Below are positions 47,296 to 63,644 of a stretch of 64,000 bases of DNA, piece after piece; the stretch's first letter is position 1; each line of letters opens with the position of its first letter. The notes beneath the pieces were generated by a model that was not told the DNA's origin, made no database searches, and saw only the letters and a list, made by a program, of their open reading frames with translations. Both the position numbers and the translations under genes were made by a program. Location of the stretch: sequence record ON568341.1, one strand, 5' to 3'. Source of the stretch: Escherichia phage UE-S1.

Positions 47296-47539
47296 AATGC
47301 TAGTACTGACAGAACTAGAAATGTATCATAGATTTAACAAGTACTATCATTTACTTAAGCCTATACAGAGGATTAAATGTCCATTTGAAGAGAAACAGGT
47401 ATTAATTTATGAGCATAAGTTATTTGTATCATTAGGTACGAATGAACAAGAGTATTATTTGAAGTTGTACTTAATTACTTTAATTGAATTGATTAATCAC
47501 AAAACTCAGAAAGCTAAGAAATCTAAAAATGAAAACTAA
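47288..47539 (+). CDS. LGTNYQE-family small protein
   Basis: motif LGTNEQEYYL. Confidence 0.55.
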   Translation: MFKMLVLTELEMYHRFNKYYHLLKPIQRIKCPFEEKQVLIYEHKLFVSLGTNEQEYYLKLYLITLIELINHKTQKAKKSKNEN

Positions 47540-47867
47540 TATTCAACTCAAGGTATACATATCTTATGAATCTATATACATCAAATGCAGTCTATGTAAA
47601 GATGTAATGGATTATAAAGGTAAGCCATTCACAATTACTTACAGTCTAACAGGAGGTTTTTATATATCTTTTGTTGATTACGAAAATAAAATATACAAGC
47701 ACATTGATATTAAAGATTTAAGTACCTTGTCAGATGAGGAATACTTTCAAGAATCATTAGTATGGGATTTAGAGTTTCCTATGACATTAGTACACAAAAT
47801 GATAGTTCTAATGAAAGAAACTAAACCTGAGCCGAGTGGTTATGAAGAATTCATTATTGAGTATTAA
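47529..47867 (+). CDS. FQxSLVxD-family protein (first member, interleaved with LGTNYQE array)
   Basis: motif EEYFQESLVWDLEFPM. Confidence 0.55.
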   Translation: MKTNIQLKVYISYESIYIKCSLCKDVMDYKGKPFTITYSLTGGFYISFVDYENKIYKHIDIKDLSTLSDEEYFQESLVWDLEFPMTLVHKMIVLMKETKPEPSGYEEFIIEY

Positions 47868-47879
47868 GAGTACTGATAT

Positions 47880-48095
47880 ATGAAAATATTATCATACAAA
47901 GATTATAGTAAGCTTATCAGTGCTTTGCAACCAGAAATTAGGAGAATTAATTCTCTTCCTGTATCTAATGCAGAATGTACAGTACTGAAAAAAGAGTTAA
48001 TATTAAAACGCACAGTAGGTACTAACTATCAGGATAATAGTGTTCGAGATTTAATTAGAGGGTTAATGAACACAATAAAGGCCAAGTGCCATTGA
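47880..48095 (+). CDS. LGTNYQE-family small protein
   Basis: motif VGTNYQDNSV. Confidence 0.55.
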   Translation: MKILSYKDYSKLISALQPEIRRINSLPVSNAECTVLKKELILKRTVGTNYQDNSVRDLIRGLMNTIKAKCH

Positions 48096-48159
48096 CAGTA
48101 CTTGACGGAGCTTTTCATTACTGATATAGTACACAAACGTTAATCATAGGGTAGAAATT

Positions 48160-48405
48160 ATGTTAAAATTTTTAAATTTCCTTATCGTCTTGTGTATTGT
48201 TCTTGGGATTGCACCGTTTGTACTGGTGTATATGGATTCAGATGAAATGCAAAAGATGAATTGCACAAAGACGGGACAGAGTAGAGAAGAGACGATTCTT
48301 ATGCCTGTTACCGTTATTGTTAATAATATGCCCATTACAAACATGGTCCCTAACCTAACGACAACGTACCAGTACTCTTGTACAGACGGGGAGAGGTGGA
48401 GATGA
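48160..48405 (+). CDS. small membrane protein (81 aa)
   Basis: Hydrophobic N-terminus FLNFLIVLCIVLGIAPFVLV; promoter-like TTGACG-17-TATAGT upstream. Confidence 0.45.
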   Translation: MLKFLNFLIVLCIVLGIAPFVLVYMDSDEMQKMNCTKTGQSREETILMPVTVIVNNMPITNMVPNLTTTYQYSCTDGERWR

Positions 48406-48722
48406 AATTTAATATAGCAAAAACATCGAATGTATGTATATTTGGTTATGCAGATGAGTTAGGTGATCTTGACATTCTTTTGTACAAAAAGGATGGTGTT
48501 ATGCATTTCAAGTACCAGGATGAAGAGGCAGACAATTATCCTTTACCTAATTTAGTACAAATGCAGGAAGAGGAATTATTCCAGTACAGCTTAGTATATG
48601 ACATTGATATTTGCACGATGCCAGTACTAATTAATATTCAAAAAGTGATGCTCGATGTGTTTGATAGGCTAATACAAGGCACACAAGGAAGAACCATATA
48701 TGTCAATGTACAAGACAATTAA
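48402..48722 (+). CDS. FQxSLVxD-family protein
   Basis: ATG 48402 after GGAGAGGTGGAG SD; motif EEELFQYSLVYDIDICTMP. Confidence 0.55.
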   Translation: MKFNIAKTSNVCIFGYADELGDLDILLYKKDGVMHFKYQDEEADNYPLPNLVQMQEEELFQYSLVYDIDICTMPVLINIQKVMLDVFDRLIQGTQGRTIYVNVQDN

Positions 48723-48915
48723 TCAAGAATGGAAGACCCAAAAATACAGAGAATTCAATAGGAATTTTACAAAAGACGAATTGAATATAAAAACAACAGA
48801 ATTTGATATGTTTATTTTTCTCGGAACACGTTCACAGGAGCAATTTGTTCATTATTATATAAATTCGTTGCGAACGGAGATAGTATGCAAAACAAAGGGT
48901 ATTATAAAAAGGTAA
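48700..48915 (+). CDS. LGTNYQE-like small protein (divergent)
   Basis: motif LGTRSQEQFV. Confidence 0.5.
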   Translation: MSMYKTINQEWKTQKYREFNRNFTKDELNIKTTEFDMFIFLGTRSQEQFVHYYINSLRTEIVCKTKGIIKR

Positions 48916-49151
48916 ACCAACATTTGTACGCTACAAAGTACAGGGATTTTTGTTTAAAGGGTGGTGATGAAGATTTTTCTTTGCGATTATCAGAATTTAA
49001 TCTGTTATTTTATCTTGGTACATCGGAACAAGAAGAAATGGCACAGAAATTTATCAAGCACCTTGTACAAAAAATTAATATGCAAATTTTGATGCTTAAG
49101 TTACAGAATGAGATAAATGAATATGAACCCAACAATAGTACTGGATCTTAA
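48885..49151 (+). CDS. LGTNYQE-like small protein (divergent)
   Basis: motif LGTSEQEEMA. Confidence 0.5.
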   Translation: MQNKGYYKKVNQHLYATKYRDFCLKGGDEDFSLRLSEFNLLFYLGTSEQEEMAQKFIKHLVQKINMQILMLKLQNEINEYEPNNSTGS

Positions 49152-49506
49152 AAAAGTAATATTTCTATTGAATGCCAGAAGTGAATTGTATACAGAGTTA
49201 AAAGAGATTAATGCATTTTATCAGAATTTTGTAATCCAAGAGTTCAGTGATTTAATTACAGATGCATTATTTGAATTCTCGGAGAAATACAAAGGAGCCG
49301 AGTTCAGTGTTAAGAATGTATTACGTCCTTTATCTAAGCGTATAATAAAATTGGATCATTTTAAATTTGACAATAAAGATTTATTCAGCTATAATCCTAA
49401 TACAGCTTTATATTTTATTCCTGATTCAGACAAAGATCACCCAATTCATTACGGATGGATTCTGTCGTACATAGAACAAGGAAAGGAGTATCCTATTAAA
49501 TGGTAA
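49117..49506 (+). CDS. hypothetical protein (129 aa)
   Basis: ORF in array; no family motif recognised. Confidence 0.45.
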   Translation: MNMNPTIVLDLKKVIFLLNARSELYTELKEINAFYQNFVIQEFSDLITDALFEFSEKYKGAEFSVKNVLRPLSKRIIKLDHFKFDNKDLFSYNPNTALYFIPDSDKDHPIHYGWILSYIEQGKEYPIKW

Positions 49507-49660
49507 GATTATGGCGTTTAGATTATTACACAATTAATGTAAATTATTTGCTGAGTAATATAAAATCCGATTACAAAATATGGATAAAGAACAGAGATAG
49601 TATGTGTTATGAATTTTATTTAGATTATGCTATCAAACGATTTTTAAGAGAAGAACATTA

Positions 49661-49864
49661 GTGCAAAATAGTAATACGATAACATTAAATGCATTACAGG
49701 ATTCATTATTAGATAGTATTAAGATGTATTACAATATACATTTGAGGGGTGGCATTGATGATTATAATTATTATTTGAGTTTAATTGTAATTGAGCACCT
49801 TTCAGTACAGGACAGGATTTTACATCCTACAAATCCTATGTATCCATCAATAGGTAAATTATGA
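49661..49864 (+). CDS. hypothetical protein (67 aa)
   Basis: ORF; ATGA coupling to next gene. Confidence 0.4.
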   Translation: MQNSNTITLNALQDSLLDSIKMYYNIHLRGGIDDYNYYLSLIVIEHLSVQDRILHPTNPMYPSIGKL

Positions 49865-50418
49865 ATGAGATAGAGTTATTAGCACACAAGATAAGTACAA
49901 TAATGCTTATCCTCAATAACAACCATCCTATATCGCAGATAGATGGAATCCTGAGTCAGAGGACAGGTGGTAGTTTATATTTGTCCATAAACGCAAATAT
50001 CGCAAGGAAATACATTGACATTGGTGATGTTGATGCTGAAATCGAATGTGATACAACTGGAATTGTTGATGTAGGTGCATTAATCAGTTCAAATCCTGTA
50101 TCAGTATCCCCATTGACCAAAGGTGTTAGTACAGGATTCGAAGGATATTTGTGGTATAATGCTAATGATAATTATTTTATATATCAGCATTCCAATACAA
50201 ATTATGATGAAGATAAATTTGAGTTCATTGACCCTTATGATGAAGCTGGAGTATTTCAACAATCATTAATCACAAAACCACATCAAATGATGTATCTAAT
50301 GTTATTCAGTACAATGAATTTGAATCCATTAATTAATGGTTTAAAGTTTTATATTCAATTGAATCTGGTTCATATAGTTTATGATTTATTAATGCAAGGA
50401 TATAGTTATGAAGTATAA
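49861..50418 (+). CDS. FQxSLVxD-family protein (185 aa)
   Basis: motif DEAGVFQQSLITKPHQ. Confidence 0.5.
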   Translation: MNEIELLAHKISTIMLILNNNHPISQIDGILSQRTGGSLYLSINANIARKYIDIGDVDAEIECDTTGIVDVGALISSNPVSVSPLTKGVSTGFEGYLWYNANDNYFIYQHSNTNYDEDKFEFIDPYDEAGVFQQSLITKPHQMMYLMLFSTMNLNPLINGLKFYIQLNLVHIVYDLLMQGYSYEV

Positions 50419-50710
50419 AATGATGTATACTCCAGATATGATTTATGTTGAATTAGAAGACGATGACGACGGGTGGAATTTGATTTATTCAATTAGTTCA
50501 GGTTGGTACATGGCACATTTAAATGATAACAAAGTTACAGATTATTTTGTAGATTTCAACACCTTATCCGATGAAGAATTGTTTCAACAACAATTAGTGA
50601 TTGATACAGGTGGTTATGATGTGTTATTATTAAAAAAGATACAGAAAGCTGTTATTGATTTTAAGCCCAATATGTTGCAAAGGAAATATTATGACATCGA
50701 AGTACAATAA
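50408..50710 (+). CDS. FQxSLVxD-family protein
   Basis: motif DEELFQQQLVIDTGGYD. Confidence 0.55.
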   Translation: MKYKMMYTPDMIYVELEDDDDGWNLIYSISSGWYMAHLNDNKVTDYFVDFNTLSDEELFQQQLVIDTGGYDVLLLKKIQKAVIDFKPNMLQRKYYDIEVQ

Positions 50711-51044
50711 TGTATTTGATATTAAGAAATTAAAAGAATGGGTTTATAGTATTGAAATTGAAGCAATTCCTTATCATAGATACAAACAATATGATTTATG
50801 TAATATAGATATTCGTGAGTTGTACGCATATTATCAGAGTGCATTAGAGATGCATAAGATATTTTTGAGTTCAAATTACATGACACGTTGTAATGATGCT
50901 TTTAAAGAATTTAATAATTATAATTTAGTACAAAAATATGTAGTATCAAAGTACATGTACAATCAAGGAATTAAAGGTTGTATTGAATTCAATTCGGTCT
51001 TTGCTTTAGTTGAGATAATTTTATGCAGTACATGTCTGATTTAG
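50691..51044 (+). CDS. hypothetical protein (117 aa)
   Basis: ATG 50691 after AGGAAA; track ORF 50655 trimmed. Confidence 0.45.
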   Translation: MTSKYNNVFDIKKLKEWVYSIEIEAIPYHRYKQYDLCNIDIRELYAYYQSALEMHKIFLSSNYMTRCNDAFKEFNNYNLVQKYVVSKYMYNQGIKGCIEFNSVFALVEIILCSTCLI

Positions 51045-51520
51045 AGTTTAGTTTAGATGCTGCTTTTAAATTTGTACACAAGATAGAAACAATATATCGT
51101 ACATTATGTGCAATACGATTAGTAACATCTGAACTTGATGTTGGTAAAAGGTATCAGGTATGGAATAACACATTTCTAGACAAAGAGCGTTGTTCAACTG
51201 GGTTTAATATTTTATCATTTAATCCAAGTAATTGTTACCCAGAGAAGCATGAGCGTTATCCGAATGATGACATGTGGTTTGAGTACAAAGAAGATGGTGA
51301 TATGTCGTTCATTGAAGTTCCTGATGATTTTAATGCACAAGATTTAACTGAAGAATGGTGGTTCCAGCAGAATTTAGTCCACGATGATATTGATTTATTT
51401 TTTTATGTAGTATTTAAAATGCTTTATCATAACAAGATAGTACAAGATAGTGTATTTTTTTCATGTCTATATATTGATGATTTGTACAATGAAATTCAAA
51501 TCAACATGCCTGTATCGTAA
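51023..51520 (+). CDS. FQxSLVxD-family protein
   Basis: motif EEWWFQQNLVHDDIDLF. Confidence 0.55.
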   Translation: MQYMSDLEFSLDAAFKFVHKIETIYRTLCAIRLVTSELDVGKRYQVWNNTFLDKERCSTGFNILSFNPSNCYPEKHERYPNDDMWFEYKEDGDMSFIEVPDDFNAQDLTEEWWFQQNLVHDDIDLFFYVVFKMLYHNKIVQDSVFFSCLYIDDLYNEIQINMPVS

Positions 51521-51600
51521 GATATGGGCTTTTTTTGTTTTGGTATTGACATAGAAGTACAAAACTGTTATCATGGGTAATCATTTTAAAGGAGGAATTT

Positions 51601-52134
51601 ATGGCGAGTTTTATGGTTCCAAGTACATACGAAGATGCATCAAGTGCAGTGCATAAGGTTCATCATATTTTTAATTTAATTATTAATGCATCAAAAAATA
51701 AAATGTATGCACCTCTAGTGAAATTTAATAAAAATGAGGAAATTTTTGTTAGTACAGAACAAACGATTTTTCCATATTTCAATAAAGATAGATTATGGTT
51801 CATGCATTCAGTCGCATTACAAAGATATAATATAACAAGATCCAACGAAAATCATAATCCAAGATATTTGCATATATCGTTATACCATCCCGATATTGGA
51901 GAGGATGAATATTTTCAGTACAGCACAGTACACCACCATGAAGATATCTTTGCTGCTATGCTTATTGCTAAATTGAACACCGTTGATTTGGAGAAGCACA
52001 AATACAATAATAAATCATGTAAGATCATAATCCCTGCATTCATAGCTCTTTATGATTATGTGGTGCATAACAAAAAAGATGATACATATGCTTTCAATGA
52101 AGAGTATTTGAATTTTTTTAAGGAGAACATATGA
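51601..52134 (+). CDS. FQxSLVxD-family protein
   Basis: AAGGAGGA SD; motif EDEYFQYSTVHHHEDIF; promoter-like TTGACA-17-TATCAT upstream. Confidence 0.55.
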   Translation: MASFMVPSTYEDASSAVHKVHHIFNLIINASKNKMYAPLVKFNKNEEIFVSTEQTIFPYFNKDRLWFMHSVALQRYNITRSNENHNPRYLHISLYHPDIGEDEYFQYSTVHHHEDIFAAMLIAKLNTVDLEKHKYNNKSCKIIIPAFIALYDYVVHNKKDDTYAFNEEYLNFFKENI

Positions 52135-52661
52135 GCAGTACAACAGTACAGAAAGCAATGACATTCAATGAAATTGGTACATTTAAAGATAAGATCATTG
52201 ATTGCCTTGAATACATGATTTGTAGTAATATTGAGAGTATCGAAATATTTAACAAGAGAAATCGCTCTTACCATATGATGTACACTGCAAAAAATACTGG
52301 TATCATTCCATTTATTTCGGATAGCACAATATGGTACGCATGTGATACGAAAAAATACACAGCAGGTTCGTATAGCGTAGGGTCACATACGGAATTGATT
52401 ATTCCTGAGCATTGTATACAAGAAGAAGAATATTTTCAAATGCAATGTGTACATTCACCATTAGAGTTGTTTAGTTTATATATGATACCGTATATTTCTA
52501 AATGTGTTCATGAGAATAAAGCTCCGTGGAATCATGAATTTGTATCGTTGAAGTTATTGTATAATGTATTAGTAGAATATTATGATTACAGGCACAATGG
52601 TACAATCAGTGATGTATGGGATTTTGAATCGCTAAGGGTGAAAACATACACAGGTGAATGA
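52131..52661 (+). CDS. FQxSLVxD-family protein
   Basis: ATGA overlap; motif EEEYFQMQCVHSPLELF. Confidence 0.55.
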   Translation: MSSTTVQKAMTFNEIGTFKDKIIDCLEYMICSNIESIEIFNKRNRSYHMMYTAKNTGIIPFISDSTIWYACDTKKYTAGSYSVGSHTELIIPEHCIQEEEYFQMQCVHSPLELFSLYMIPYISKCVHENKAPWNHEFVSLKLLYNVLVEYYDYRHNGTISDVWDFESLRVKTYTGE

Positions 52662-53277
52662 TATGACCAGAATTAAAATGTATGATTTGATGCAGTACAG
52701 TAAAATTGCAATTCCAGTACTTAATAAAGTGCTGGATGCATTCATTGCCAAATACCCTGAGAATTCAGAGTTACGCATTCCATTTCGTGTACCAGATAAA
52801 GATGATATATTCCAAGTGAATGTCAGTACACGTGGTATTACATTGCAGCAGAAATACATGGATACAGAATATTATGGAATAAAGTTGGATTCAGTTCAGG
52901 GTTCGAAATCAGCCTATGATTTTTTTGTTCCTAATAATATAGAGTCATGGGAAACAAACATTTCAAAGAAAGATGAAAATGATGTTCCTATTAGCGGTGA
53001 ATTAAACAATAAAGTTTTTTATTATTACGAAACTGATAAATTCCCTGAAGAGTTATATTACAATTCAGAAATGAGTGAAGATGTAGATGCATTTATGTTT
53101 CAATTATCTTTAGTACATGATATCATCGACGTTCAAGAGTTAAGAGCAGAAATCAATTTAGCTAAAGAGTTGTCGGACATGTTGCCACCGTTTAGTATGA
53201 TTTTTTGTGAAGGAGGTTATTTTACAAAAGAAGTGTTTGAACATTTCGTAGATGTTGTAAAAGGGTTGGATATATAG
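52654..53277 (+). CDS. FQxSLVxD-family protein
   Basis: motif DAFMFQLSLVHDIIDV. Confidence 0.55.
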   Translation: MNDMTRIKMYDLMQYSKIAIPVLNKVLDAFIAKYPENSELRIPFRVPDKDDIFQVNVSTRGITLQQKYMDTEYYGIKLDSVQGSKSAYDFFVPNNIESWETNISKKDENDVPISGELNNKVFYYYETDKFPEELYYNSEMSEDVDAFMFQLSLVHDIIDVQELRAEINLAKELSDMLPPFSMIFCEGGYFTKEVFEHFVDVVKGLDI

Positions 53278-53278
53278 T

Positions 53279-53473
53279 ATGCTTACTGATGATATTAAAC
53301 AAAAATACCGTAAGTTTGATTGGTTCACCGACAGTTTCCAGCTTGAATTACTGCATTTGAATATAAGTGAGACATTATGTGCAGAAACACAAGATGAATT
53401 TGATGACAGAGTTCTTAACATAGTAATGCTTTCTTGCTTTAAACATTTTGGTTATTTTTTCGAACAGGATTAA
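53279..53473 (+). CDS. hypothetical protein (64 aa)
   Basis: ORF tightly following previous gene. Confidence 0.4.
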   Translation: MLTDDIKQKYRKFDWFTDSFQLELLHLNISETLCAETQDEFDDRVLNIVMLSCFKHFGYFFEQD

Positions 53474-53481
53474 GGTACAAA

Positions 53482-53997
53482 ATGCATCAACACAAGCATC
53501 ATTCATATGATTTTGCAATTAACATTATGAAGTTCATTCGAGCGTTGGAGGATGGGAAGCTTAGTCATAAGTACAGGAAAGAGGGTAACAATTGGTTCAG
53601 AAATGATTCCGAGTTCAGGAGTCATAACATCGTGTATAGCAATCAGTACAGTGCCAATTACCTACAAGATGTAGTGATGTGTTTTGAATATGTATTGCAG
53701 TTCAGGGGTACAATCCAGAATGAATTAATGGATCACATGTACATCCGATACCTTCCAATGCATAAAGATGAAAATGCATTATTAGGTTCAATATACCAAC
53801 GAGTAAGGGAAATTGAGTGCAGGGATATATTAGATACAGAAGAATCGTATTTCCAGCAATCTCTTATTACTGCACCTGATTCATTACAGGCACATAATTT
53901 GTTTAATACATTACGTCAGAACATCAGTACAGACATATTTTTGTCATTATTGGATTATGATACATTTGTCAAAGATTTAGAGGAAATAGGTTTATGA
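53482..53997 (+). CDS. FQxSLVxD-family protein
   Basis: motif EESYFQQSLITAPDSL. Confidence 0.55.
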   Translation: MHQHKHHSYDFAINIMKFIRALEDGKLSHKYRKEGNNWFRNDSEFRSHNIVYSNQYSANYLQDVVMCFEYVLQFRGTIQNELMDHMYIRYLPMHKDENALLGSIYQRVREIECRDILDTEESYFQQSLITAPDSLQAHNLFNTLRQNISTDIFLSLLDYDTFVKDLEEIGL

Positions 53998-54350
53998 GTA
54001 TATTTTCGGTTTGTGTGGTAAACATAAAAAGTGATGGTAGTTTAATTGAATTTGAACTAGTTGATGACGATTATAATGCATATGGTATTAAAGTACAGGG
54101 CAATGATGTACAGTTCAGTGCAAGAACAGATTATGAAAATCCAGTCCATGTTCCTAATTTCATAGAAGATGAAGCAACCCGATTCCAATACGAAACGGTA
54201 TATGACAATGTACATATGCATATTGTTATGCAACAAAGTTTAGTTCAATTAGTTCCTTTGTTCAGACAAAATATATATGTACACGAGATAACGATTGGTG
54301 GCATAAGTAAATCCGTGTTATTCCGTACAATTGATTCCTATGATATGTAA
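53994..54350 (+). CDS. FQxSLVxD-family protein
   Basis: ATGA overlap; motif EATRFQYETVYDNVHMH. Confidence 0.5.
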   Translation: MSIFSVCVVNIKSDGSLIEFELVDDDYNAYGIKVQGNDVQFSARTDYENPVHVPNFIEDEATRFQYETVYDNVHMHIVMQQSLVQLVPLFRQNIYVHEITIGGISKSVLFRTIDSYDM

Positions 54351-54359: not shown

Positions 54360-54908
54360 ATGAGTTTATTAGATACATTAGAAAAAGACAGAAGTGCAAT
54401 TAAGCGTTTAAAAGAGCAAGTACAAAAGATTGTATACAACGTTGATAAGTTTGAGGTTCCCGGAAGATTTGGTGATATTTCCCATACGGAGATCAAATCC
54501 CTGAAGTCAGATTTGTTGATTAAAAATAAAAATGAGTTGATTTTAGTTTTGAGTTCAGATATGATGGGGGCAAGATATGGTTTTAATTCAATATCAGTAC
54601 ATCCTAAGAGTGAAGGGTTATATCTATCACAGGGTTTCAATAGCAACGAGCAGAAGTGTTTTTGTGATGCCGTGCATGATCCTATGAAGTTCAGGAGAAG
54701 TGAAGCCCAAGCGTTATTAGAGCTATCAGACGAAAGTTTGTTTCAGTACAGTACAATATACGACAATGACAAGCTTCGTTGTATGTACGCAGTGAAGCAT
54801 TATGCACATGAGTTCTCTGGATTTGAATACCTTTTAGTCAGAACCAATACAATGTATCTTGATATGTTAGAAGAATACATCGATAAAGTTGTCAATGAGT
54901 ATTACTAA
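54360..54908 (+). CDS. FQxSLVxD-family protein
   Basis: AAGGAAG SD; motif DESLFQYSTIYDNDKL. Confidence 0.55.
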   Translation: MSLLDTLEKDRSAIKRLKEQVQKIVYNVDKFEVPGRFGDISHTEIKSLKSDLLIKNKNELILVLSSDMMGARYGFNSISVHPKSEGLYLSQGFNSNEQKCFCDAVHDPMKFRRSEAQALLELSDESLFQYSTIYDNDKLRCMYAVKHYAHEFSGFEYLLVRTNTMYLDMLEEYIDKVVNEYY

Positions 54909-55542: not shown

Positions 55543-56271
55543 ATGAAATATAAAGAATTTTGTATAAAAACATGGATGTACACTGGTGAATTGCTTACGT
55601 GTTGTAATTTGTACAAGCGTGATGTAAACTTCACAAAGGACAAAGTTATCAAGTATGAAAATTCTCAATTTTATTTGATGGATTTTAGTACTGGGTTTCA
55701 TGGTAAATCAACCGAGATGCTGGATTATACATTAATGGATGAGGCGGCACTATTTCAAGAATCATTAGTATTTGATAAGAAGTACATCTGTACATTAGAA
55801 GAGATGATTGAAATTCAGAATAAAATTAAATGTGTTCACAGGGAATGTATTGATAAATGGTGTAAAACTGGTGAAACTGATTTTAGTAATCATTTTAATC
55901 TAGGAGAAAGAGTGATGGAATTTGATTTTTTAATATCAGTGCATACATTCAAGAATACACATCAGTACTTTTGTAATTTAAACAAAGGTGATTTAATGCA
56001 CAGTGCGAATGAGTATATTCATTTTATGGATGGTAAATTCACATTCATTGATTACAGTTCATTACAATATCCACATCAAGATATGCCGGACTATACAATA
56101 ATGAATGAGGCTGAACTATTTCAAGCTTCATTAGTATTTGACAAGAAGTACATCTGTACATTTGAAGAAGTAATTACTATACAAAATGAAATGAAGGAGT
56201 ATGCATCTTTGAATAAACCCAATGAAGGTATTAATCAAGAATACAAATTCAATATAGAGATTCCAAAATGA
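55543..56271 (+). CDS. FQxSLVxD-family protein with internally duplicated domain (242 aa)
   Basis: Two copies: TLMDEAALFQESLVFDKKYICTLEEMIEIQNKIK and TIMNEAELFQASLVFDKKYICTFEEVITIQNEMK. Confidence 0.6.
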   Translation: MKYKEFCIKTWMYTGELLTCCNLYKRDVNFTKDKVIKYENSQFYLMDFSTGFHGKSTEMLDYTLMDEAALFQESLVFDKKYICTLEEMIEIQNKIKCVHRECIDKWCKTGETDFSNHFNLGERVMEFDFLISVHTFKNTHQYFCNLNKGDLMHSANEYIHFMDGKFTFIDYSSLQYPHQDMPDYTIMNEAELFQASLVFDKKYICTFEEVITIQNEMKEYASLNKPNEGINQEYKFNIEIPK

Positions 56272-56627
56272 CATATGATTACTCTATGTACTATTATAAG
56301 TTACCTAAAGGATGGGACTTGTGCTGTAATCTTATTAAGGGAGACTCGGAACATGAGTTGAATTTATATATGCACTACAAAGATTCTTGTTTTAAATTTA
56401 TTCATGTATCACATGATGACTATGACTATGAATCTGAGAGTCTTATAGATTATACAGTACTGGACGATGGCGAACTATTTCAGGAAGCATTAGTGTTTGA
56501 TAAGAATAAGTACTCCTGTACATTTGAAGAAATGGTTTCTTTGCAAACTGAAATGAAGAGATTTGAAAAAGAAAACGTATTTAATCCATCCCCATCAAGA
56601 ACGAATAATTATTATTTCAATATATGA
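56268..56627 (+). CDS. FQxSLVxD-family protein
   Basis: ATGA overlap; motif DGELFQEALVFDKNKYSCTFEE. Confidence 0.55.
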   Translation: MTYDYSMYYYKLPKGWDLCCNLIKGDSEHELNLYMHYKDSCFKFIHVSHDDYDYESESLIDYTVLDDGELFQEALVFDKNKYSCTFEEMVSLQTEMKRFEKENVFNPSPSRTNNYYFNI

Positions 56628-56636: not shown

Positions 56637-57110
56637 ATGACATTACAGAGTTCATTGGAAAAAGCAAAGAAGATCCATGAGTACATGAATATGGCAAAAG
56701 AAGGTTCAGTTTACGGTGTTTTCAAAGACACAAGTACTCAATATTATGTGCCGGATAACCTCCTTTATAATGACTACTCAGATACAGAAACGTGCGTACT
56801 GGATACCGACCCTAAAGATTATGAATGTTTCATTGATATGCATTATGAGTACATGGTCTATATTAATGATGCAGATATTACCATCTACAGTACTGACAGC
56901 GATTCCGATGACATTATAATTCCGAGTGAAGTTCTGGAAGGTCCGTGGGATAGTGAAGAGTATTACTTCCAACAAAGTACTGTGTATGATGAAGAAGTTT
57001 TAGATGTTATTGTAATTATGTGGTATTTTAAAAGTATTGGTTCTGGGAACTTCTATTTCGATTACAAATACGTAAAGAAAACTGTAGATAACGGTATTAA
57101 CAGGGGTTGA
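56637..57110 (+). CDS. FQxSLVxD-family protein (MSLQSxLEKAK subfamily)
   Basis: motif EEYYFQQSTVYDEEVLDVIVIMWYFKSIG. Confidence 0.6.
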   Translation: MTLQSSLEKAKKIHEYMNMAKEGSVYGVFKDTSTQYYVPDNLLYNDYSDTETCVLDTDPKDYECFIDMHYEYMVYINDADITIYSTDSDSDDIIIPSEVLEGPWDSEEYYFQQSTVYDEEVLDVIVIMWYFKSIGSGNFYFDYKYVKKTVDNGINRG

Positions 57111-57111
57111 A

Positions 57112-57582
57112 ATGAGTTTAGAAAGAGCATTAGAGATTGCGAAGTTAATTGATTTATGCAGCAAAGAAATTGTATCAAATTGTCTCAATGGATATCTATT
57201 CAAGGAAGGTAAATCATATTGTCGAATGAGATACGATGACAGTAGTGAGTATATTCACATGTATGAAGAAGACCTTGATGATTCCGAAATAACACTGAAT
57301 GGGTGTGATGTTAATCTGGAAGATAATTACATTTACTTCAGTCGTGGTGCTGATATTTTAATACAAGAAACATCAATTCAACATGTGAATCCAGATGTAT
57401 ATCTTCCATATTCAGTACTGGATAATGACTGGGGAAGTGAAGAGGTTTACTTTCAGCATAATACTATCTATGATGAAGATGTGCTTGACAAGCTTGTCAT
57501 TCTGTGGTACTTTAAGAACACTGATACTCCCAACTTCTATATGGATTTGGATCTACTACGAGTTATAAAAGAGGATATATGA
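57112..57582 (+). CDS. FQxSLVxD-family protein (MSL subfamily)
   Basis: motif EEVYFQHNTIYDEDVLDKLVILWYFKNT. Confidence 0.6.
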   Translation: MSLERALEIAKLIDLCSKEIVSNCLNGYLFKEGKSYCRMRYDDSSEYIHMYEEDLDDSEITLNGCDVNLEDNYIYFSRGADILIQETSIQHVNPDVYLPYSVLDNDWGSEEVYFQHNTIYDEDVLDKLVILWYFKNTDTPNFYMDLDLLRVIKEDI

Positions 57583-58022
57583 GTTTAGCAAGTGCACTTA
57601 AACTGGCACACAAAATACATCACTTCCACGATAACATAAAAAGTGGGTTTTATGGTGATAAAGTACATACATATGGAAATGAATATTATCTATCAGGTGT
57701 GACAAGATACTCTAATGATATTTTACTTATGGGATGTGATAAAGATAACTTCATGCAGTACACGTCATGTAGCTTATACACTAATTTTATTGTATATATG
57801 CCTGGTGCTAATATTACATTTGACACATCAAATACCTCGGTAGATTTTGGAATACTGGATGGGCCGTGGGGGACTGAAGAGTATTACTTCCAACAGAGTT
57901 TTATTTTCAGCCAAGAAATGCTTGATTCCTTGGTTGTTTTGTGGTACTTTAAGGAATTAGATATAGAACCCTTCTTTATGGACTGGGGGGCGTGTGAGTA
58001 TTTAGAGACAGAGGTATATTAA
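57579..58022 (+). CDS. FQxSLVxD-family protein (MSL subfamily)
   Basis: ATGA overlap; motif EEYYFQQSFIFSQEMLDSLVVLWYFKEL. Confidence 0.6.
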   Translation: MSLASALKLAHKIHHFHDNIKSGFYGDKVHTYGNEYYLSGVTRYSNDILLMGCDKDNFMQYTSCSLYTNFIVYMPGANITFDTSNTSVDFGILDGPWGTEEYYFQQSFIFSQEMLDSLVVLWYFKELDIEPFFMDWGACEYLETEVY

Positions 58023-58510
58023 TGTCATTGCAGAGTGCATTAAAAGAGGCAAAGAAGATTCATGAGTACATGATTATGGTACAGGAAGGTTTAGTGCCTG
58101 GTGTATACAAAACATCAGATACGGAATTCTTTGTTCTGGACAGGGATGATTATGATGAGTCCGAGGTACATGCTGAAACATTAGTTCTGCACACTGATAC
58201 TGGTGATAGTGACAACTGTGAATATCATATGTACAATCAATACATTAGTTATTGCCGTAATGAAGATATTACCATCTACAACACAGATATTGATGCTGAT
58301 GACACTATCATTCCATATTCAGTTCTGGAAGGTCCGTGGGATAGTGAAGAGTATTACTTTCAGAATAGTACTATCTACAGTGAAGAAGAACTGGATGTTA
58401 TTGTGATTATGTGGTACTTTAAAAGTATTGACTCCAGTAGTTTCTATTTTGATTATGAATATGTAGAGAATACAGTAGGAGAAGGTAATGTCATTACAAA
58501 GTGCTCTTGA
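58022..58510 (+). CDS. FQxSLVxD-family protein (MSL subfamily)
   Basis: TAATG overlap; motif EEYYFQNSTIYSEEELDVIVIMWYFKSI. Confidence 0.6.
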   Translation: MSLQSALKEAKKIHEYMIMVQEGLVPGVYKTSDTEFFVLDRDDYDESEVHAETLVLHTDTGDSDNCEYHMYNQYISYCRNEDITIYNTDIDADDTIIPYSVLEGPWDSEEYYFQNSTIYSEEELDVIVIMWYFKSIDSSSFYFDYEYVENTVGEGNVITKCS

Positions 58511-58934
58511 AAAAGCAAAAGAACTACATGGATACTTTGAAGATATAAAGGCAGGAAAGTTCAAAGAAGTATACAAAACCGAGAACGGTAACTACTACAA
58601 AGATGAAATATATAATAATTCCGTTGGTGTAAGGGTTATTCTTGGGTTGAATTCCAATAGTCCTGTGTCGTTTTCTGAATACAATAGAGATGCAGAATTC
58701 ATTAGTTATGTTGAAAATGGTAGCATTCGTTTTATTAATAGACAAAAACCATTAATTTTGAATTATGAAGTTCTGGATGGTCAGTGGAATAATGAAGAGT
58801 ATTACTTCCAAAACAGTACTGTATACGACGATGAAGTACTTGAAGCATTAGTTATTATGTGGTACTTCAAGAGTATTAACTGTCCTCGATTTTATTTGGA
58901 TTTCGAAGAACTTGGTAAAGATCCAGAGGTATAG
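58488..58934 (+). CDS. FQxSLVxD-family protein (MSL subfamily)
   Basis: motif EEYYFQNSTVYDDEVLEALVIMWYFKSI. Confidence 0.6.
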   Translation: MSLQSALEKAKELHGYFEDIKAGKFKEVYKTENGNYYKDEIYNNSVGVRVILGLNSNSPVSFSEYNRDAEFISYVENGSIRFINRQKPLILNYEVLDGQWNNEEYYFQNSTVYDDEVLEALVIMWYFKSINCPRFYLDFEELGKDPEV

Positions 58935-58935
58935 A

Positions 58936-59250
58936 ATGAAAAACTTATTCAGTGTTCAGTACGTTCCAGGTGAAATTAGTTTATTGTATCTCTTTGACCA
59001 TGATAATTCATTATTACTAGTAGTGAAGAAATGCCAAGCTAGTTCGTTTGTTGAATACATTCACGATAATGAATATATACCTGATTTTTTAGAGTGTGAT
59101 TATCACGATGAACATGAATCATTTATTTTCCAGGAATCGCTAGTATGGGATAAGTCGATTAACTTTTTTACGTTAATTGAATTACAAAAGCAGGTGAAAT
59201 ATCATTGGGATTACTTAATTACCCAAGACTACATAGAGATAGAAATATAA
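58936..59250 (+). CDS. FQxSLVxD-family protein
   Basis: ATG 58936; motif SFIFQESLVWDKSINFF. Confidence 0.5.
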   Translation: MKNLFSVQYVPGEISLLYLFDHDNSLLLVVKKCQASSFVEYIHDNEYIPDFLECDYHDEHESFIFQESLVWDKSINFFTLIELQKQVKYHWDYLITQDYIEIEI

Positions 59251-59558
59251 TGACTAAAAATGAATTTGATTCACTTTGTACGGTTTATAATTCATTGACA
59301 GCAATACCTGACTTTATTAATTATATTTCAGCTTTAAATCACATTATGCATAGTTTTGAACAATCATTTGAAGAGAAATATGCTGGAAGAAAAGTTCTAT
59401 GTCATATGACAATGTACTTAGGAGATGGTGAGCCTTACACTACAAGTACTACATGTGAAATAAAAAAATATAATATATTATTGGGAACTATAGAATTCAC
59501 AGTATCCAATGGCGGTAGTTATATGTACTTTAGAGATGGAGTGGTTGAATTATTATGA
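59250..59558 (+). CDS. hypothetical protein (102 aa)
   Basis: TAATG coupling; no family motif. Confidence 0.45.
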   Translation: MTKNEFDSLCTVYNSLTAIPDFINYISALNHIMHSFEQSFEEKYAGRKVLCHMTMYLGDGEPYTTSTTCEIKKYNILLGTIEFTVSNGGSYMYFRDGVVELL

Positions 59559-60004
59559 GTTACGAAAGTGCAATCAAGAAAGCAAATGATATTCTACGCG
59601 TCGTTCAATTCTTCAAAGAAAATCCTGAATACGTAGATGATAAAAACCAAGAGAACGATGAGAGATTGAGACGAAAAATTATCTCTTTATTTGACACTAA
59701 TAAAGATAATTGGAGTCTATGTGAGTTAGCATACGATTATATTTCATTGAACCGAAATGATGATGTAGTTAAGATAGAAAGGCATGAATCAGAAGAATCT
59801 TTTAAAATTTCAGATATTTTATCCCTGAGTACTGAAGAAGGGTACTTCCAGGGTAGCACTCTTTATAATGAAGAAACACTTGACAATCTATGCACATTCA
59901 GTGTAATATATCAGAAATCTGTACTAGATATATTTTATCTTGACACTGCTGAACTGCATACCCTAACCAATTTTGTTACTACCGAAGAGGCTACATTCGA
60001 GTGA
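59555..60004 (+). CDS. FQxSLVxD-family protein
   Basis: ATGA overlap; N-term MSYESAIKKAN; motif EEGYFQGSTLYNEETLDNL. Confidence 0.55.
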   Translation: MSYESAIKKANDILRVVQFFKENPEYVDDKNQENDERLRRKIISLFDTNKDNWSLCELAYDYISLNRNDDVVKIERHESEESFKISDILSLSTEEGYFQGSTLYNEETLDNLCTFSVIYQKSVLDIFYLDTAELHTLTNFVTTEEATFE

Positions 60005-60537
60005 TGAAAGTTAACATTAATGACTTTGATGCATTACAAGATTTATCAAAAAAGATTCGCACCATCGTACCAGTACTTAAAAAATGCAGTACTGGTTTAA
60101 TCGATCCTAGTACTGTTGTTAATGAGAAGTACAATTTTCATCGTGTATTACAGGGGACAGGTGCATTTCAGAAGTGTGAGGTACGTGAGAAACATGTAAT
60201 TGATACATCGTTGTTTTCTATTGGTGCACCTGTGTCAAACAATACTATTTTCCTGGATGCCTCTGGAAATATTCAACAATTAACATTTAAGAAAAGGAAA
60301 AAGAATAATAACATTGGTGTGTACGCGATGAAGTGGGGACAGCCAGCGTTGATGCGTGACATTCACATTCCTAAGTACAATTTCAATGCATTTGAAGAAC
60401 AGTGTTTTCAACTTTCTTGTACTGACCCTGACTATGCTATCATTCAATTCTATATGGAATTGCAGATTGCATTTAATAGTAATTTGTATATTAACTTATT
60501 GGCAATGAACATAGATGAAGTATTCAAAAACATTTAA
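60001..60537 (+). CDS. FQxSLVxD-like protein (divergent)
   Basis: ATGA overlap; motif EEQCFQLSCTDPDYA. Confidence 0.5.
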   Translation: MMKVNINDFDALQDLSKKIRTIVPVLKKCSTGLIDPSTVVNEKYNFHRVLQGTGAFQKCEVREKHVIDTSLFSIGAPVSNNTIFLDASGNIQQLTFKKRKKNNNIGVYAMKWGQPALMRDIHIPKYNFNAFEEQCFQLSCTDPDYAIIQFYMELQIAFNSNLYINLLAMNIDEVFKNI

Positions 60538-60733
60538 TCGAATTGAATACATGAGAACTGTGAGAGCGGTGTGGAATATATGGTACACTACTAAACCAAA
60601 AATGGATTACCATGATTTTAAGCTCTTGTTCTTTGTTGGCTCTAACAAACAGGATGTTGCAATGAAGGGTTATATTCAGCACTTACAGGAACTAATCCAG
60701 AAGAGAATATATGAAAATAATAGACCAAAATGA
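60515..60733 (+). CDS. LGTNYQE-like small protein
   Basis: motif FVGSNKQDVAMKGYIQHL. Confidence 0.5.
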   Translation: MKYSKTFNRIEYMRTVRAVWNIWYTTKPKMDYHDFKLLFFVGSNKQDVAMKGYIQHLQELIQKRIYENNRPK

Positions 60734-60902
60734 CATTGCTAAACTATTCAATATATATTCTACTAGAATGATGCAAACAGATTCATATAGTACTAAATTC
60801 AAAGAGTTGAAAGTACTGATGTACTTGGGAACACAATATCAGGAACAAGTTATTTTAGAATATATTAATTCATTAAAGAAGGATATCCGTGATGTACGAT
60901 GA
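60711..60902 (+). CDS. LGTNYQE-family small protein
   Basis: motif LGTQYQEQVILEYINSL. Confidence 0.55.
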   Translation: MKIIDQNDIAKLFNIYSTRMMQTDSYSTKFKELKVLMYLGTQYQEQVILEYINSLKKDIRDVR

Positions 60903-61452
60903 TTTAGATCTTGCGTTTGAACGCATGAAAATTTTAATGCAATGCAATGAAATGCATGAGACAATCCGTCGCACCAAAGGGATTGAATATACAAGTAAAC
61001 TATTCTCATACGAAAGTCGTCGAGGGATGGATCATTTTTACTGCACTGATTGTTCAAAGTTTTCAGTACTGAAATATTATCATCCTACTGTTTCCAATAA
61101 TAGTTTAATATCCACATATGACGGTGATCTGTTTAGTGTAATGTATGACACATTACATCCATCAATTTCAATATATAAAGATTGCGATAGTAGTCTATCG
61201 TATATAATTGAAGATTACTTATCTCCTAATACTGAAGAGAATATATTTCAAAACAGTGTATTGCATGATGAATTAAGTATAAAATGCATCTATATGTTCA
61301 ATAAGTTAAAAGAATACGTTGATAATAATTACTTAATTGATGAGTTAGCTGTGTTTTCGGTTTCAGTTTTCAATACAAATGATGTTGATATGAAATACTA
61401 TAATGAAATTTGTAAAGTACATAACATGTATAAGGAACTCTTATGCTACTAA
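60889..61452 (+). CDS. FQxSLVxD-family protein
   Basis: motif EENIFQNSVLHDELSIKCIYMF. Confidence 0.55.
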   Translation: MMYDDLDLAFERMKILMQCNEMHETIRRTKGIEYTSKLFSYESRRGMDHFYCTDCSKFSVLKYYHPTVSNNSLISTYDGDLFSVMYDTLHPSISIYKDCDSSLSYIIEDYLSPNTEENIFQNSVLHDELSIKCIYMFNKLKEYVDNNYLIDELAVFSVSVFNTNDVDMKYYNEICKVHNMYKELLCY

Positions 61453-62045
61453 ATGCCAATAAATGTTGTAGTGCAGATGTGCATTTGTTTTTTAAGAAAT
61501 TGGCAAATGATATTATATATATGCAGGAAATGATTTACCACAAACGAACAGATTTAGAAAAAGCATTAGTACAGTTCTCCTTTATGCTTGATGGTGATAT
61601 ATTTCTACATGGTGATACATTGCGAACAGTACTGGACGGAAATTCAAATAGAAGTTTCATTTGTACAAATAATAAATTTTCTTCCACGATGTGCCGTACT
61701 TTTTATAATCCTGATTCGGACTTATATCAAGTGTCGTATTCTAAAGGTGCAGTTGAATCATCATATTGTGATAGTTCAGCTTTAGGTAAAAGTCGTCCAT
61801 ATATGCAATCATTTGAAATTGAACTCATCAGTACTGATGAAGATGCAATGTTCACAAATGATATAACGATGGATCGTGAATCGGCAATGATATATATTAC
61901 AAATTCTATGCATACATTCTTTCAACGATTAGAATTTGATAATGTATATATATCAAATGTAAATATTTTCAATGATCTGTGTCAGTACTTGAAAAGTGTT
62001 TGTGATTTTGATGAAAGCTATTGTAAGCTTTATACTGAGGTATAA
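61443..62045 (+). CDS. hypothetical protein (200 aa), possibly divergent family member
   Basis: Degenerate motif DEDAMFTNDITMD. Confidence 0.45.
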   Translation: MLLNANKCCSADVHLFFKKLANDIIYMQEMIYHKRTDLEKALVQFSFMLDGDIFLHGDTLRTVLDGNSNRSFICTNNKFSSTMCRTFYNPDSDLYQVSYSKGAVESSYCDSSALGKSRPYMQSFEIELISTDEDAMFTNDITMDRESAMIYITNSMHTFFQRLEFDNVYISNVNIFNDLCQYLKSVCDFDESYCKLYTEV

Positions 62046-62050
62046 AACAA

Positions 62051-62413
62051 ATGAACACATTAAGTATTACATACTATACAACTAAAAAATTAATTACTTG
62101 TTTAATATCATTGAAGTCAAAAAATGATGATATGTTTGATATGGCTGCATATGAATTAGAATTATCAGAAGATGGTTTCAAGATCTATGAAGTATATAGC
62201 TATGTTCGTGAAGATGTAATTGACACTACACTAATGCAAGAGGATGAGTTATTCCAAGAAAGTTTAGTATGGGATAATAAGTACGATTGTAACTTTGATT
62301 TCTTATGTTTAATCCAAAAAGAAATGAAAAGAATCTTTGATAATTATCCAATCAAACGTTTCAGTACTGCACCTGAGCAATATAAAAGGATTATATTCAC
62401 CTATGAAGATTGA
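62051..62413 (+). CDS. FQxSLVxD-family protein
   Basis: motif EDELFQESLVWDNKYDCNFDF. Confidence 0.55.
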   Translation: MNTLSITYYTTKKLITCLISLKSKNDDMFDMAAYELELSEDGFKIYEVYSYVREDVIDTTLMQEDELFQESLVWDNKYDCNFDFLCLIQKEMKRIFDNYPIKRFSTAPEQYKRIIFTYED

Positions 62414-62780
62414 ATTTGAAGTTATTACATATAGTATAGGTGATGGTATCCGTTGCTACGTACAAGCAAGGCATATTGTTCCTGATGATAAACTGTCACC
62501 CAAAAGTTTCCTTATTACACAAGAACTCTTAGATATTAACAGAGAGAACAAGTATACATATTATCTCACTAAGGGTTATTGTGGTTCGCGTGGATTTAAT
62601 ATTGTAGCTGTTTCTAGAGATGAAATTGATGATTTAACTGAGTACGGTGAAGAAGAGATGTTCCAGTACAGTACTGTTTTTAATGAACTGGATGTGTTTC
62701 TGTTACGAAAAATACAACACATTATGAAAGAATGTTTGCATCATAAGAGAGGTATTGTATGCGACGTGAATCTGAATTAG
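62403..62780 (+). CDS. FQxSLVxD-family protein
   Basis: ATG 62403; motif EEEMFQYSTVFNELDVF. Confidence 0.55.
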   Translation: MKIEFEVITYSIGDGIRCYVQARHIVPDDKLSPKSFLITQELLDINRENKYTYYLTKGYCGSRGFNIVAVSRDEIDDLTEYGEEEMFQYSTVFNELDVFLLRKIQHIMKECLHHKRGIVCDVNLN

Positions 62781-63100
62781 TTAAAGTAATGTACGCTACT
62801 CATATTAAACTACTACTTGTGAAATTTGATTATAATATAAAACATAATAATTTCTATACGTTGATTCGTGATGAAAATTCATTCTCATTGCGATGCAACA
62901 ATATACAGTGGACGATAAGTGATTTTACTTCACTTGACGAGGGTGAATTATTTCAAGAATCATTAGTTTTTAATAGTAATATAAAAGTTGATATAGAAGC
63001 AATTAAACAGTATCAAATATTATTAAACAAAATTATGGATTGTTATCCATGTGAAATAGGTGGTCATATGCAGTTCAAATCAAAAATGTACGAGTTATGA
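62759..63100 (+). CDS. FQxSLVxD-family protein
   Basis: motif EGELFQESLVFNSNIKV. Confidence 0.55.
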   Translation: MRRESELVKVMYATHIKLLLVKFDYNIKHNNFYTLIRDENSFSLRCNNIQWTISDFTSLDEGELFQESLVFNSNIKVDIEAIKQYQILLNKIMDCYPCEIGGHMQFKSKMYEL

Positions 63101-63107
63101 GGTCTTT

Positions 63108-63644
63108 ATGTTAGATAAAAAAATGAACACTGGAACTCTATACAATCATCTTAAGTTGGATACTTTCGAATCAGCTATCAGTACTGCACAAGATATTATC
63201 GATATTATTAAGTACATTAAAGAAAATAAGTTAAAATGTGTGAAAACACCCGAACGTACAATGTATAAAGATGACTGTATTCACGTATCTGTTGTTAATC
63301 CAAAAGATAAGGATGGTAATAGAGATTTCTATAATAACAGTGAGCAGTTCGAATGTGAATATGATCCAGAATTCAGAGGTGGTTTCATGTGTTACAGTAT
63401 GAAGGATACCTCACACATTGAGATACGTTCATCTAAAGGTGGCATACGTACATTAGAGTTCATTGATATAGTTTTAAATCAGGAATACTACTTTCAACTA
63501 TCATTATTGTTTCCTGCATACGATTTAGGAGTTCTATTCATGTATAAGTACTTTCATGAGCACTGGAATGAAGACTTCTATCTGGACTTAGAAGATTACC
63601 AATTAGTTTGGGAAGAAATGGTAGAACTTCGCAACCACTCTTGA
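63108..63644 (+). CDS. FQxSLVxD-family protein
   Basis: ATG 63108; motif QEYYFQLSLLFPAYDLG. Confidence 0.55.
   Translation: MLDKKMNTGTLYNHLKLDTFESAISTAQDIIDIIKYIKENKLKCVKTPERTMYKDDCIHVSVVNPKDKDGNRDFYNNSEQFECEYDPEFRGGFMCYSMKDTSHIEIRSSKGGIRTLEFIDIVLNQEYYFQLSLLFPAYDLGVLFMYKYFHEHWNEDFYLDLEDYQLVWEEMVELRNHS

Follow-up and report, generated by a model that had tools for sequence, protein, structure and literature searches.

The region analysed here comprises 64,000 nucleotides of the genome of Escherichia phage UE-S1 (sequence record ON568341.1, referred to as the window), whose plus strand carries, between positions 47529 and 63644, a tandem array of small genes encoding a family of paralogous proteins. 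These proteins share a short internal segment with the consensus (S/T)-E-E-x-(Y/L)-F-Q-x-S-(L/T)-(V/I)-(Y/H/F/W)-D, after which we name them the FQ family. Its genes are real and evolve under purifying selection, and the family is uncharacterised and absent from curated domain libraries. In the following, we describe its membership, fold and distribution, and weigh what the array might do for the phage.

Membership, motif and predicted fold of the FQ family

Membership was defined with a family hidden Markov model (HMM) that was built from the motif region and applied in successive iterations to the 343 open reading frames (ORFs) of at least 40 amino acids on both strands of the window. It retrieves 25 ORFs with 26 domains at 47529-63644, all encoded on the plus strand (E 3e-12 to 6e-23), and a broader HMM recovers the identical member set as this core HMM; the sole further match outside the array range is located at 6789-7439. 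A first-pass annotation of this DNA had counted at least 26 genes between 47.5 and 63.6 kb. This count stands for 25 genes (26 domains) that are solid by HMM, and two further ones, at 60001-60537 and 61443-62045, are degenerate candidates only, whose match to the core HMM is not significant, leaving a tally in this range of 25 solid and two probable genes. The same annotation had described the motif as internal and kept in frame, a property borne out by the 28 matches of a relaxed motif pattern in a six-frame translation, all of which are found on the plus strand and within ORFs, whereas 200 shuffles produced 0.095 matches on average and never more than 2. Repeats in the DNA of the array are found only at the motif itself and in a few closer paralogue pairs (60-86% identity), and the codons show synonymous variation, with serine encoded by TCN as well as AGY triplets, thus placing the conservation at the level of the protein. 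Of the 258 unique domains that the HMM recovers, 100% contain F and Q and 84% contain S, the two E reach frequencies of 79% and 70%, and a D upstream of them is seen in 66%. The invariance of F-Q is partly circular because the HMM itself selects for the motif. The N-terminal halves are highly variable, as had been recognised at the outset: BLASTP among the members detects only one cluster of eight short-class and one of six long-class proteins, and the remaining members are thus linked solely via the motif profile. Both classes are joined by hhalign across the motif block with a probability of 81% (E 1e-5).

A comparison with the orthologues of phage 121Q yields a ratio of nonsynonymous to synonymous substitution rates (dN/dS) of 0.26 overall (26 pairs), with values of 0.12 for the motif, 0.30 for the part N-terminal to it and 0.23 for the C-terminal part, and it reveals purifying selection in every paralogue tested. 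Together with confident fold predictions and conservation across phage genera, this ratio supports the initial view of true protein-coding paralogues. AlphaFold modelling, which the first-pass annotation had suggested, was carried out with AlphaFold2 for one long-class and one short-class member and reached a predicted local distance difference test (pLDDT) score of 88.9 and 79.6, respectively. Both models show the same order of elements, in which the motif segment comes after a beta-sheet and leads into an amphipathic helix and one final strand; the long class has an additional N-terminal helix. The domain is predicted to be of the two-layer alpha/beta type, with an antiparallel beta-sheet. 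The hydrophobic helix that had been anticipated after the motif is present in both models, and the motif itself sits in the folded core, in the region of highest pLDDT. Single-domain members are 100-210 amino acids in size and mostly acidic and soluble, with no membrane-spanning segments found in any family member. Their median isoelectric point (pI) is 4.6 compared to 8.1 in other plus-strand ORFs, with most members in the range of 4.0-5.9 and net charges as low as -27.

Searches against Pfam-A and NCBIfam gave no match at gathering scores, and the weak ones (T4_MRH, RINGv, DUF669 and others) each concern a single member; against solved structures in the PDB no match was obtained by sequence profile or by fold. 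A known common domain as origin of the motif is thus rejected, with nothing consistent found in Pfam, NCBIfam or PDB sequence profiles. Matches in PHROGs are to families of unknown function (phrog_13866, 15629, 9317, 12674, 28549, 30978, 31297, 32681 and 34359), with E values of 1e-42 to 1e-138 for cognate matches and with cross-matches among the families. These entries consist of the same proteins from 121Q, PBECO4 and RaK2, which PHROGs splits into many unrelated-looking, unannotated families, and no record there unites them into one superfamily on the basis of their F-Q core. A profile search run exhaustively over 1.84 billion representative proteins retrieved only 71 clusters at E <=1e-3, mostly with the canonical motif. 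The named sources among 20 clusters that were looked up are jumbo phages of Escherichia (Asteriusvirus) or Klebsiella (Alcyoneusvirus: RaK2, K64-1, KP13-7) or an E. coli assembly (a contig of about 350 kb), with one exception, a partial entry of 70 amino acids labelled Actinomadura adrarensis on a 790-bp contig. The sole match traced to a non-phage source (P0083) was rejected as cellular homologue, as it owes its score to a TPR repeat and is a false positive: the respective ENA contig (ERZ25039457:contig_34621) encodes a TPR protein with three EAEGYFQQSLVIDR repeats that adjoins TIR and NB-ARC genes and is an unrelated chance match to the profile. A description of the family was found neither in the papers on RaK2, CBB, phAPEC6, Sharanji and fEgEco12 nor in reviews of jumbo phages. 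A literature search for a transcriptome of a RaK2-like enterobacterial phage, one query of which was too generic, found none.

Distribution, locus and expression signals

A megablast search with 47529-63644 matches 35 phage records, all of them Escherichia or Salmonella jumbo phages, the closest being 121Q and EC22.5-2 (identity of about 90%, query coverage of 98%), and all genes beneath these matches are annotated as 'hypothetical protein'. Identity to 121Q amounts to 88-92% across the whole window, which assigns it to a distinct Asteriusvirus species. A comparison of copy number, which had been proposed as a check, was obtained by HMM scans of genome segments and gave 41 copies in 121Q, 42 in fEgEco12, 28 in RaK2 and 27 in EJP2, co-oriented and at one syntenic locus. 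In 121Q the array extends from 160.8 to 189.2 kb (genes 342-408), so that the window contains only the first ~16 kb of an array of ~28 kb. The end of the array at 63.6 kb given in the first-pass annotation thus has to be revised, since the 121Q array continues for ~11 kb and 13 members past the point where the window stops. Further members are found in Erwinia phage Hallingskeid and on an uncultivated 109-kb contig from IMG/VR, with 20 members in 13.5 kb. A search of IMG/VR with a subfamily alignment returned only 121Q itself and this one new contig, and Foldseek against BFVD added Cronobacter phage GAP32 and Serratia phage BF as phages that probably encode relatives. The family is specific to RaK2/121Q-like jumbo phages of Enterobacterales.

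Copies from different genera, and also those of EJP2 compared to 121Q, have little in common beyond the motif. Between RaK2 and 121Q orthology of the copies is not resolvable, with pairwise scores of 15-49 bits and best matches within and across genomes that are about equally frequent. A rearrangement is evident at 55543-56271, a fused two-domain gene in place of which 121Q contains separate single-domain genes (genes 364-368), an example of how genes of the array have fused or split. Directly downstream of the array, 121Q, RaK2, EJP2 and Hallingskeid encode a DNA methyltransferase, a cytidylyltransferase, RnlA, PseT, a Ser/Thr phosphatase, a DNA ligase and a protease, the latter ClpP-like in 121Q, RaK2 and EJP2 and annotated as 'head maturation protease' in Hallingskeid. 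In T4, RnlA and PseT are a known counter-defence pair concerned with tRNA repair. The methyltransferase is Dam-like, and the downstream block of 121Q (189-220 kb) adds two ClpP-like proteases, one HslV-like protease and a Sir2-like protein; conserved proteins of ~280 amino acids downstream of the array have no Pfam assignment. Upstream of the array, a weakly Ser/Thr-kinase-like gene is located at 37409-38050.

The FQ array adjoins, and partly interleaves with, an array of ~70-residue proteins named LGTNYQE after their own motif. Within 41.8-63.6 kb, which covers both arrays, there are only six intergenic gaps of at least 20 nucleotides, and 16 junctions show a 4-nucleotide overlap. Sigma-70-type promoters occupy several of these gaps and, at 49367, the sequence ahead of one, and are listed in the table. 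Those at 51546 and 63641 are best conserved, with 121Q and phAPEC6 varying in the spacer only and with unchanged hexamers and TG; for the one at 48102, 121Q has the same -10 element and a -35 element with one base changed (TTGACG vs TTGACA). A different promoter type, TAAATAnnnTATAAT, is found eight times before RCC1-like virion genes (seven exact, one with a single mismatch), and there is none in the FQ array. The phAPEC6 orthologues gp415c-gp466c are not in the published virion proteome of 62 proteins, and the virion proteins of RaK2 map to two gene clusters other than the array. Taken together, acidic and soluble proteins that are not found in these virion proteomes and whose genes lie behind conserved sigma-70-type promoters are probably early proteins of the cytoplasm. 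The conserved promoters and the purifying selection speak for expression of the genes only indirectly.

Features of the FQ array and its expression signals in the window (aa, amino acids; pTM, predicted template modelling score)
Feature	Coordinates	Strand	Description	Support or remark
Short class	47529..47867	+	112 aa, DEEYFQESLVWD	HMM E 1e-14; dN/dS 0.24 vs 121Q gene 342
Short class	48378..48722	+	114 aa, EEELFQYSLVYD	HMM E 3e-17; phrog_13866, unknown function
Long class	49861..50418	+	185 aa, EAGVFQQSLIT	HMM E 5e-14
Short class	50408..50710	+	100 aa, DEELFQQQLVID	HMM E 3e-13; best 121Q match just 53% aa identity
Long class	51023..51520	+	165 aa, EEWWFQQNLVHD	HMM E 1e-16
Long class	51601..52134	+	177 aa, EDEYFQYSTVH	HMM E 1e-17; phrog_30978
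Long class	52131..52661	+	176 aa, EEEYFQMQCVH	HMM E 7e-18
Long class	52654..53277	+	207 aa, DAFMFQLSLVHD	HMM E 1e-14; phrog_31297
Long class	53482..53997	+	171 aa, EESYFQQSLIT	HMM E 5e-15
Short class	53994..54350	+	118 aa, EATRFQYETVYD	HMM E 3e-12
Long class	54360..54908	+	182 aa, DESLFQYSTIYD	HMM E 1e-15
Tandem double	55543..56271	+	Two complete short-class domains, 242 aa, EAALFQESLVFD + EAELFQASLVFD	HMM E 1e-27 overall
Short class	56268..56627	+	119 aa, DGELFQEALVFD	HMM E 6e-15
Long class	56637..57110	+	157 aa, EEYYFQQSTVYD	HMM E 6e-23; phrog_9317
Long class	57112..57582	+	156 aa, EEVYFQHNTIYD	HMM E 4e-20
Long class	57579..58022	+	147 aa, EEYYFQQSFIF	HMM E 4e-21
Long class	58022..58510	+	162 aa, EEYYFQNSTIY	HMM E 2e-21; 58% aa identity to 56637-57110
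Long class	58488..58934	+	148 aa, EEYYFQNSTVYD, modelled	HMM E 3e-22; AlphaFold pLDDT 88.9, pTM 0.84
Short class	58912..59250	+	112 aa, ESFIFQESLVWD	HMM E 5e-14
Long class	59555..60004	+	149 aa, EEGYFQGSTLY	HMM E 4e-17
Probable degenerate member	60001..60537	+	178 aa, EEQCFQLSCTD, basic pI 8.6	Motif pattern match and long-class layout
Long class	60889..61452	+	187 aa, EENIFQNSVLHD	HMM E 8e-14; phrog_32681
Possible degenerate member	61443..62045	+	200 aa, DEDAMFTNDITMD, T for Q	Aligns with long class; without HMM support
Short class	62051..62413	+	120 aa, EDELFQESLVWD, modelled	HMM E 3e-19; AlphaFold pLDDT 79.6, pTM 0.74
Family gene	62337..62780	+	147 aa from TTG start, EEEMFQYSTVF	HMM E 5e-18
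Short class	62759..63100	+	113 aa, EGELFQESLVF	HMM E 3e-18
Long class	63060..63644	+	194 aa, QEYYFQLSLLF	HMM E 1e-17; phrog_28549
Outlying member	6789..7439	+	216 aa, basic pI 9.0, SDLMFQYSLIHKD near C-terminus	HMM E 7e-9; phrog_34359
Sigma-70-type promoter	48102..48130	+	TTGACG-17-TATAGT with TG	In intergenic gap
Perfect consensus sigma-70 promoter	49367..49395	+	TTGACA-17-TATAAT	Precedes 49.5 kb gap
Intrinsic-terminator-like hairpin and T-run	51508..51529	+	Between 51023-51520 and 51601-52134	Kept in 121Q and phAPEC6
Sigma-70-type promoter	51546..51574	+	TTGACA-17-TATCAT, extended -10 TG, then AAAGGAGG
Perfect consensus sigma-70 promoter	63641..63670	+	TTGACA-18-TATAAT with TG	Begins next array unit

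The LGTNYQE family occupies 41872-47539 and, in addition, 47880-48095, 48700-49151 and 60515-60902. The interleaving of the two families noted earlier is confirmed by LGTNYQE genes at 47880-48095, 48700-48915, 48885-49151, 60515-60733 and 60711-60902. Matches to an LGTNYQE HMM number 29 in the window, about 25 in 121Q, 31 in fEgEco12 and 12 in the sampled part of RaK2; in EJP2 none was found within the sampled 6.8-56.5 kb. A single superfamily uniting the FQ and LGTNYQE proteins is rejected at an hhalign probability of 0.2%. Directly behind the promoter at 48102, an ORF of 81 residues (48160-48405, plus strand) with a strongly hydrophobic N-terminal segment, MLKFLNFLIVLCIVLGIAPFVLVY, probably encodes a small membrane protein embedded in the array.

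Further away, the motif of the outlying member at 6789-7439 reads SDLMFQYSLIH, and a basic protein of 219 residues (19387-20046, plus strand) contains a degenerate form of the motif, SEEEEFMYSTVID, near its C-terminus. Both genes flank an RCC1-like array and are unlike the acidic array members. This RCC1-like array (7481-18024, minus strand) consists of eight paralogues of ~375-395 residues, which are annotated in 121Q as RCC1-like 'DNA condensation' proteins, and in phAPEC6 proteins of this annotation are virion proteins. Ahead of most of its genes stands a hairpin, GCCAGTACT...GTACTGGC, together with a T-run, followed by the conserved element TAAATAnnnTATAAT and an AGGAGG ribosome-binding site. 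Small ORFs of similar size abut one another in two further runs at 4308-6747 and 18067-21598 (plus strand), one with six ORFs of 104-123 residues and the other with many of 60-90 residues; these runs correspond to genes 224-232 and 249-265 of 121Q and may be additional paralogue arrays. Between 22000 and 41000 (plus strand), about 20 near-perfect TTGACA-N16/17-TATAAT promoters, approximately one per small gene, give this part the look of a typical early region read by the host RNA polymerase. The T4-type late promoter octamer TATAAATA is found zero times on both strands of the window where shuffles predict 16 +/- 4.3, suggesting that this sequence is avoided.

Possible roles of the array

Viruses usually keep their tools for host manipulation in large, diversifying families of non-structural early genes. 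We tentatively favour, at somewhat less than an even chance, the proposal that the FQ array encodes diversified binders or inhibitors of host factors. In such a mechanism, the genes, packed in few operons and translationally coupled, would be read from near-consensus sigma-70 promoters by the unmodified host RNA polymerase and would thus be synthesised early, with products that would remain in the cytoplasm and outside of the virion. The F-Q segment would form the core that defines the fold and might also serve all members as a contact surface, and the sheet and the N-terminal helix would provide variable surfaces, diversified as genes were repeatedly duplicated, fused and lost. Every paralogue would have a host protein of its own to bind and probably to inhibit, where nucleic-acid-binding defence or housekeeping factors would be the likeliest targets because the proteins are acidic, and the array as a whole would serve as an arsenal for counter-defence or host takeover. 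A bolder form of this proposal, in which the family represents a new fold used as modular inhibitor scaffold, with ~30-40 early paralogues per genome each disarming a different bacterial defence or housekeeping protein, is doubtful. Were it to hold, no phage would be known with a larger counter-defence arsenal from a single family, and the array would amount to a catalogue of inhibitors and targets not paired before.

The family occupies ~8% of a genome of 350 kb (~28 kb, at least 40 genes), and purifying selection maintains it in phages whose enterobacterial hosts belong to at least three genera (Escherichia, Klebsiella and Erwinia). Should a role in host manipulation hold, the family would be a tractable source, and a rich one, from which to draw new inhibitors that act on proteins of E. 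coli and Klebsiella. Phages of this group are in development for therapy, where determinants of host range are relevant. Even with a mundane function, the definition of the family unifies dozens of entries per genome that are labelled 'hypothetical protein', and the array offers a clean system for the birth, fusion and loss of genes in phages.

Several observations weigh against a set of diversified inhibitors. The assignment of a counter-defence role is based on analogy and on the neighbouring genes, the invariance of the motif is equally compatible with a catalytic, a ligand-binding or a purely structural role, and the fold models were built on shallow alignments of paralogues. Faster evolution of the array relative to its flanks is rejected, with a divergence from 121Q that is no greater than theirs, and positive selection is not detected at the coarse level tested, where all partitions show dN/dS <1. 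Finally, the proteins encoded at 6789-7439 and 60001-60537 are basic and not acidic.

The location of the conservation, which is limited to one segment of ~12 residues with F and Q in all HMM-retrieved sequences, could alternatively reflect a helix that docks all paralogues on one shared partner, with the variable part recruiting different substrates, in a set comparable to the ankyrin/PRANC proteins of poxviruses. Candidates for such a partner would be a phage ClpP-like or HslV-like protease or a host protease or chaperone, and the two ClpP-like and one HslV-like protease downstream of the array in 121Q, with ClpP-like genes at the same position in RaK2 and EJP2, are consistent with this idea. 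However, the motif resides inside the folded core of highest pLDDT in both models, which is atypical of a docking peptide, and only two of its positions are variable, suggesting that the segment is mostly buried. We regard a family of adaptors as improbable.

We assign a similarly low probability to tandem copies of weak or redundant function that have filled an enlarged capsid, in line with the genome-expansion ratchet of Hua et al. (2017, mBio 8:e01579-17). The variation of copy number between 27 and 42 and a fairly relaxed dN/dS of 0.26 would agree with such a process, which is in turn difficult to reconcile with purifying selection in each tested paralogue, with conserved promoters and with the persistence of family and locus in Escherichia, Klebsiella and Erwinia phages despite near-total sequence turnover.

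The conserved polar residues D...E-E...Q-x-S...D, with the high frequencies of Q, S, both E and the upstream D given above, might also form an active or ligand-binding site in an enzyme or a binder of small ligands. This appears quite improbable, as no similarity to any enzyme was found in Pfam, NCBIfam or the PDB, and forty divergent paralogues of one enzyme would be unusual in a single virus; moreover, the acidic pair is located at the start of a helix, which it may simply cap. Even less credible is the packaging of the proteins in the virion for ejection with the DNA to disarm the host. 121Q and phAPEC6 both possess an inner body, and internal proteins of other phages are variable, paralogous and acidic. 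Nevertheless, none of the phAPEC6 orthologues is found among the 62 virion proteins, the RaK2 virion proteins map elsewhere, the promoters of the array are of the sigma-70 and not of the virion-gene type, and the only conserved block is internal, without a conserved N-terminal targeting or cleavage sequence, and this explanation is thus largely refuted. Finally, it is barely conceivable that the motif is a TEV/3C-like cleavage site (E-x-x-Y-x-Q followed by G/S) or a sliding-clamp peptide (QL[SD]LF): the resemblance of EEGYFQG in 59555-60004 to the TEV consensus is superficial, only 13 of 258 domains and one of 26 family ORFs in the window fit E-x-x-Y-x-Q-[GS] and 0 of 258 the clamp motif, the residue after Q is highly variable, and the segment is predicted to be structured.

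Comparison with known systems

An array of tandem genes in 121Q, which belongs to the same phage group, was mentioned by Hua et al. (2017, mBio 8:e01579-17), in whose passages on it the array is presented without coordinates, motif, structure or distribution. Their wording 'very similar', as it stands in these passages, suits the LGTNYQE array of ~70-residue proteins at least as well as the diverged FQ array. A survey by Iyer et al. (2021, Viruses 13:63), in which the FQ family is not mentioned, described for Bacillus phage G a set of ~35 zinc-ribbon proteins that arose by lineage-specific expansion. This system resembles the FQ array as a large expansion of small paralogous proteins within one lineage of jumbo phages and differs from it in its zinc-ribbon fold and its proposed role in DNA binding. 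Compared to the internal proteins of T4 and the inner-body proteins of phiKZ type, the FQ family shows neither their presence in the virion, as judged by the published proteomes of phAPEC6 and RaK2, nor their N-terminal capsid-targeting sequence with a site for the prohead protease. It shares its acidic character with the DNA mimics Ocr and ArdA, although without a Pfam match or a match in sequence or fold to solved structures.

Bacterial polyimmunity arrays contain many diverged small, often acidic alpha+beta proteins, each of which is thought to neutralise a different toxin. Such loci, with SUKH and Imm families, were reportedly described by Zhang, Iyer and Aravind in 2011. By analogy only, they are like the FQ array in their tandem organisation and type of protein, yet they reside in bacterial genomes whereas the FQ array is found in a virulent phage. 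No match to the SUKH, SMI1_KNR4 or Imm models of Pfam was obtained among the 29 members scanned, there is no similarity in fold to solved immunity proteins, and there is no toxin-like gene in or beside the array.

Another parallel in organisation is provided by multigene families of large DNA viruses of eukaryotes, such as MGF110/360/505 of African swine fever virus and the ankyrin/PRANC and BTB-kelch proteins of poxviruses. Like the FQ array, these comprise dozens of tandem, co-oriented and non-structural paralogues that combine a conserved short module with variable parts and whose copy number varies between close isolates. The families are not homologous and concern hosts from different domains of life, and a function of the FQ proteins in host range would be suggested only by analogy. 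The tandem expansion with variation in copy number, a trait of viral multigene families that interact with the host, is found in the FQ array, which in kind adds one more case to the lineage-specific expansions among small early proteins of phages.

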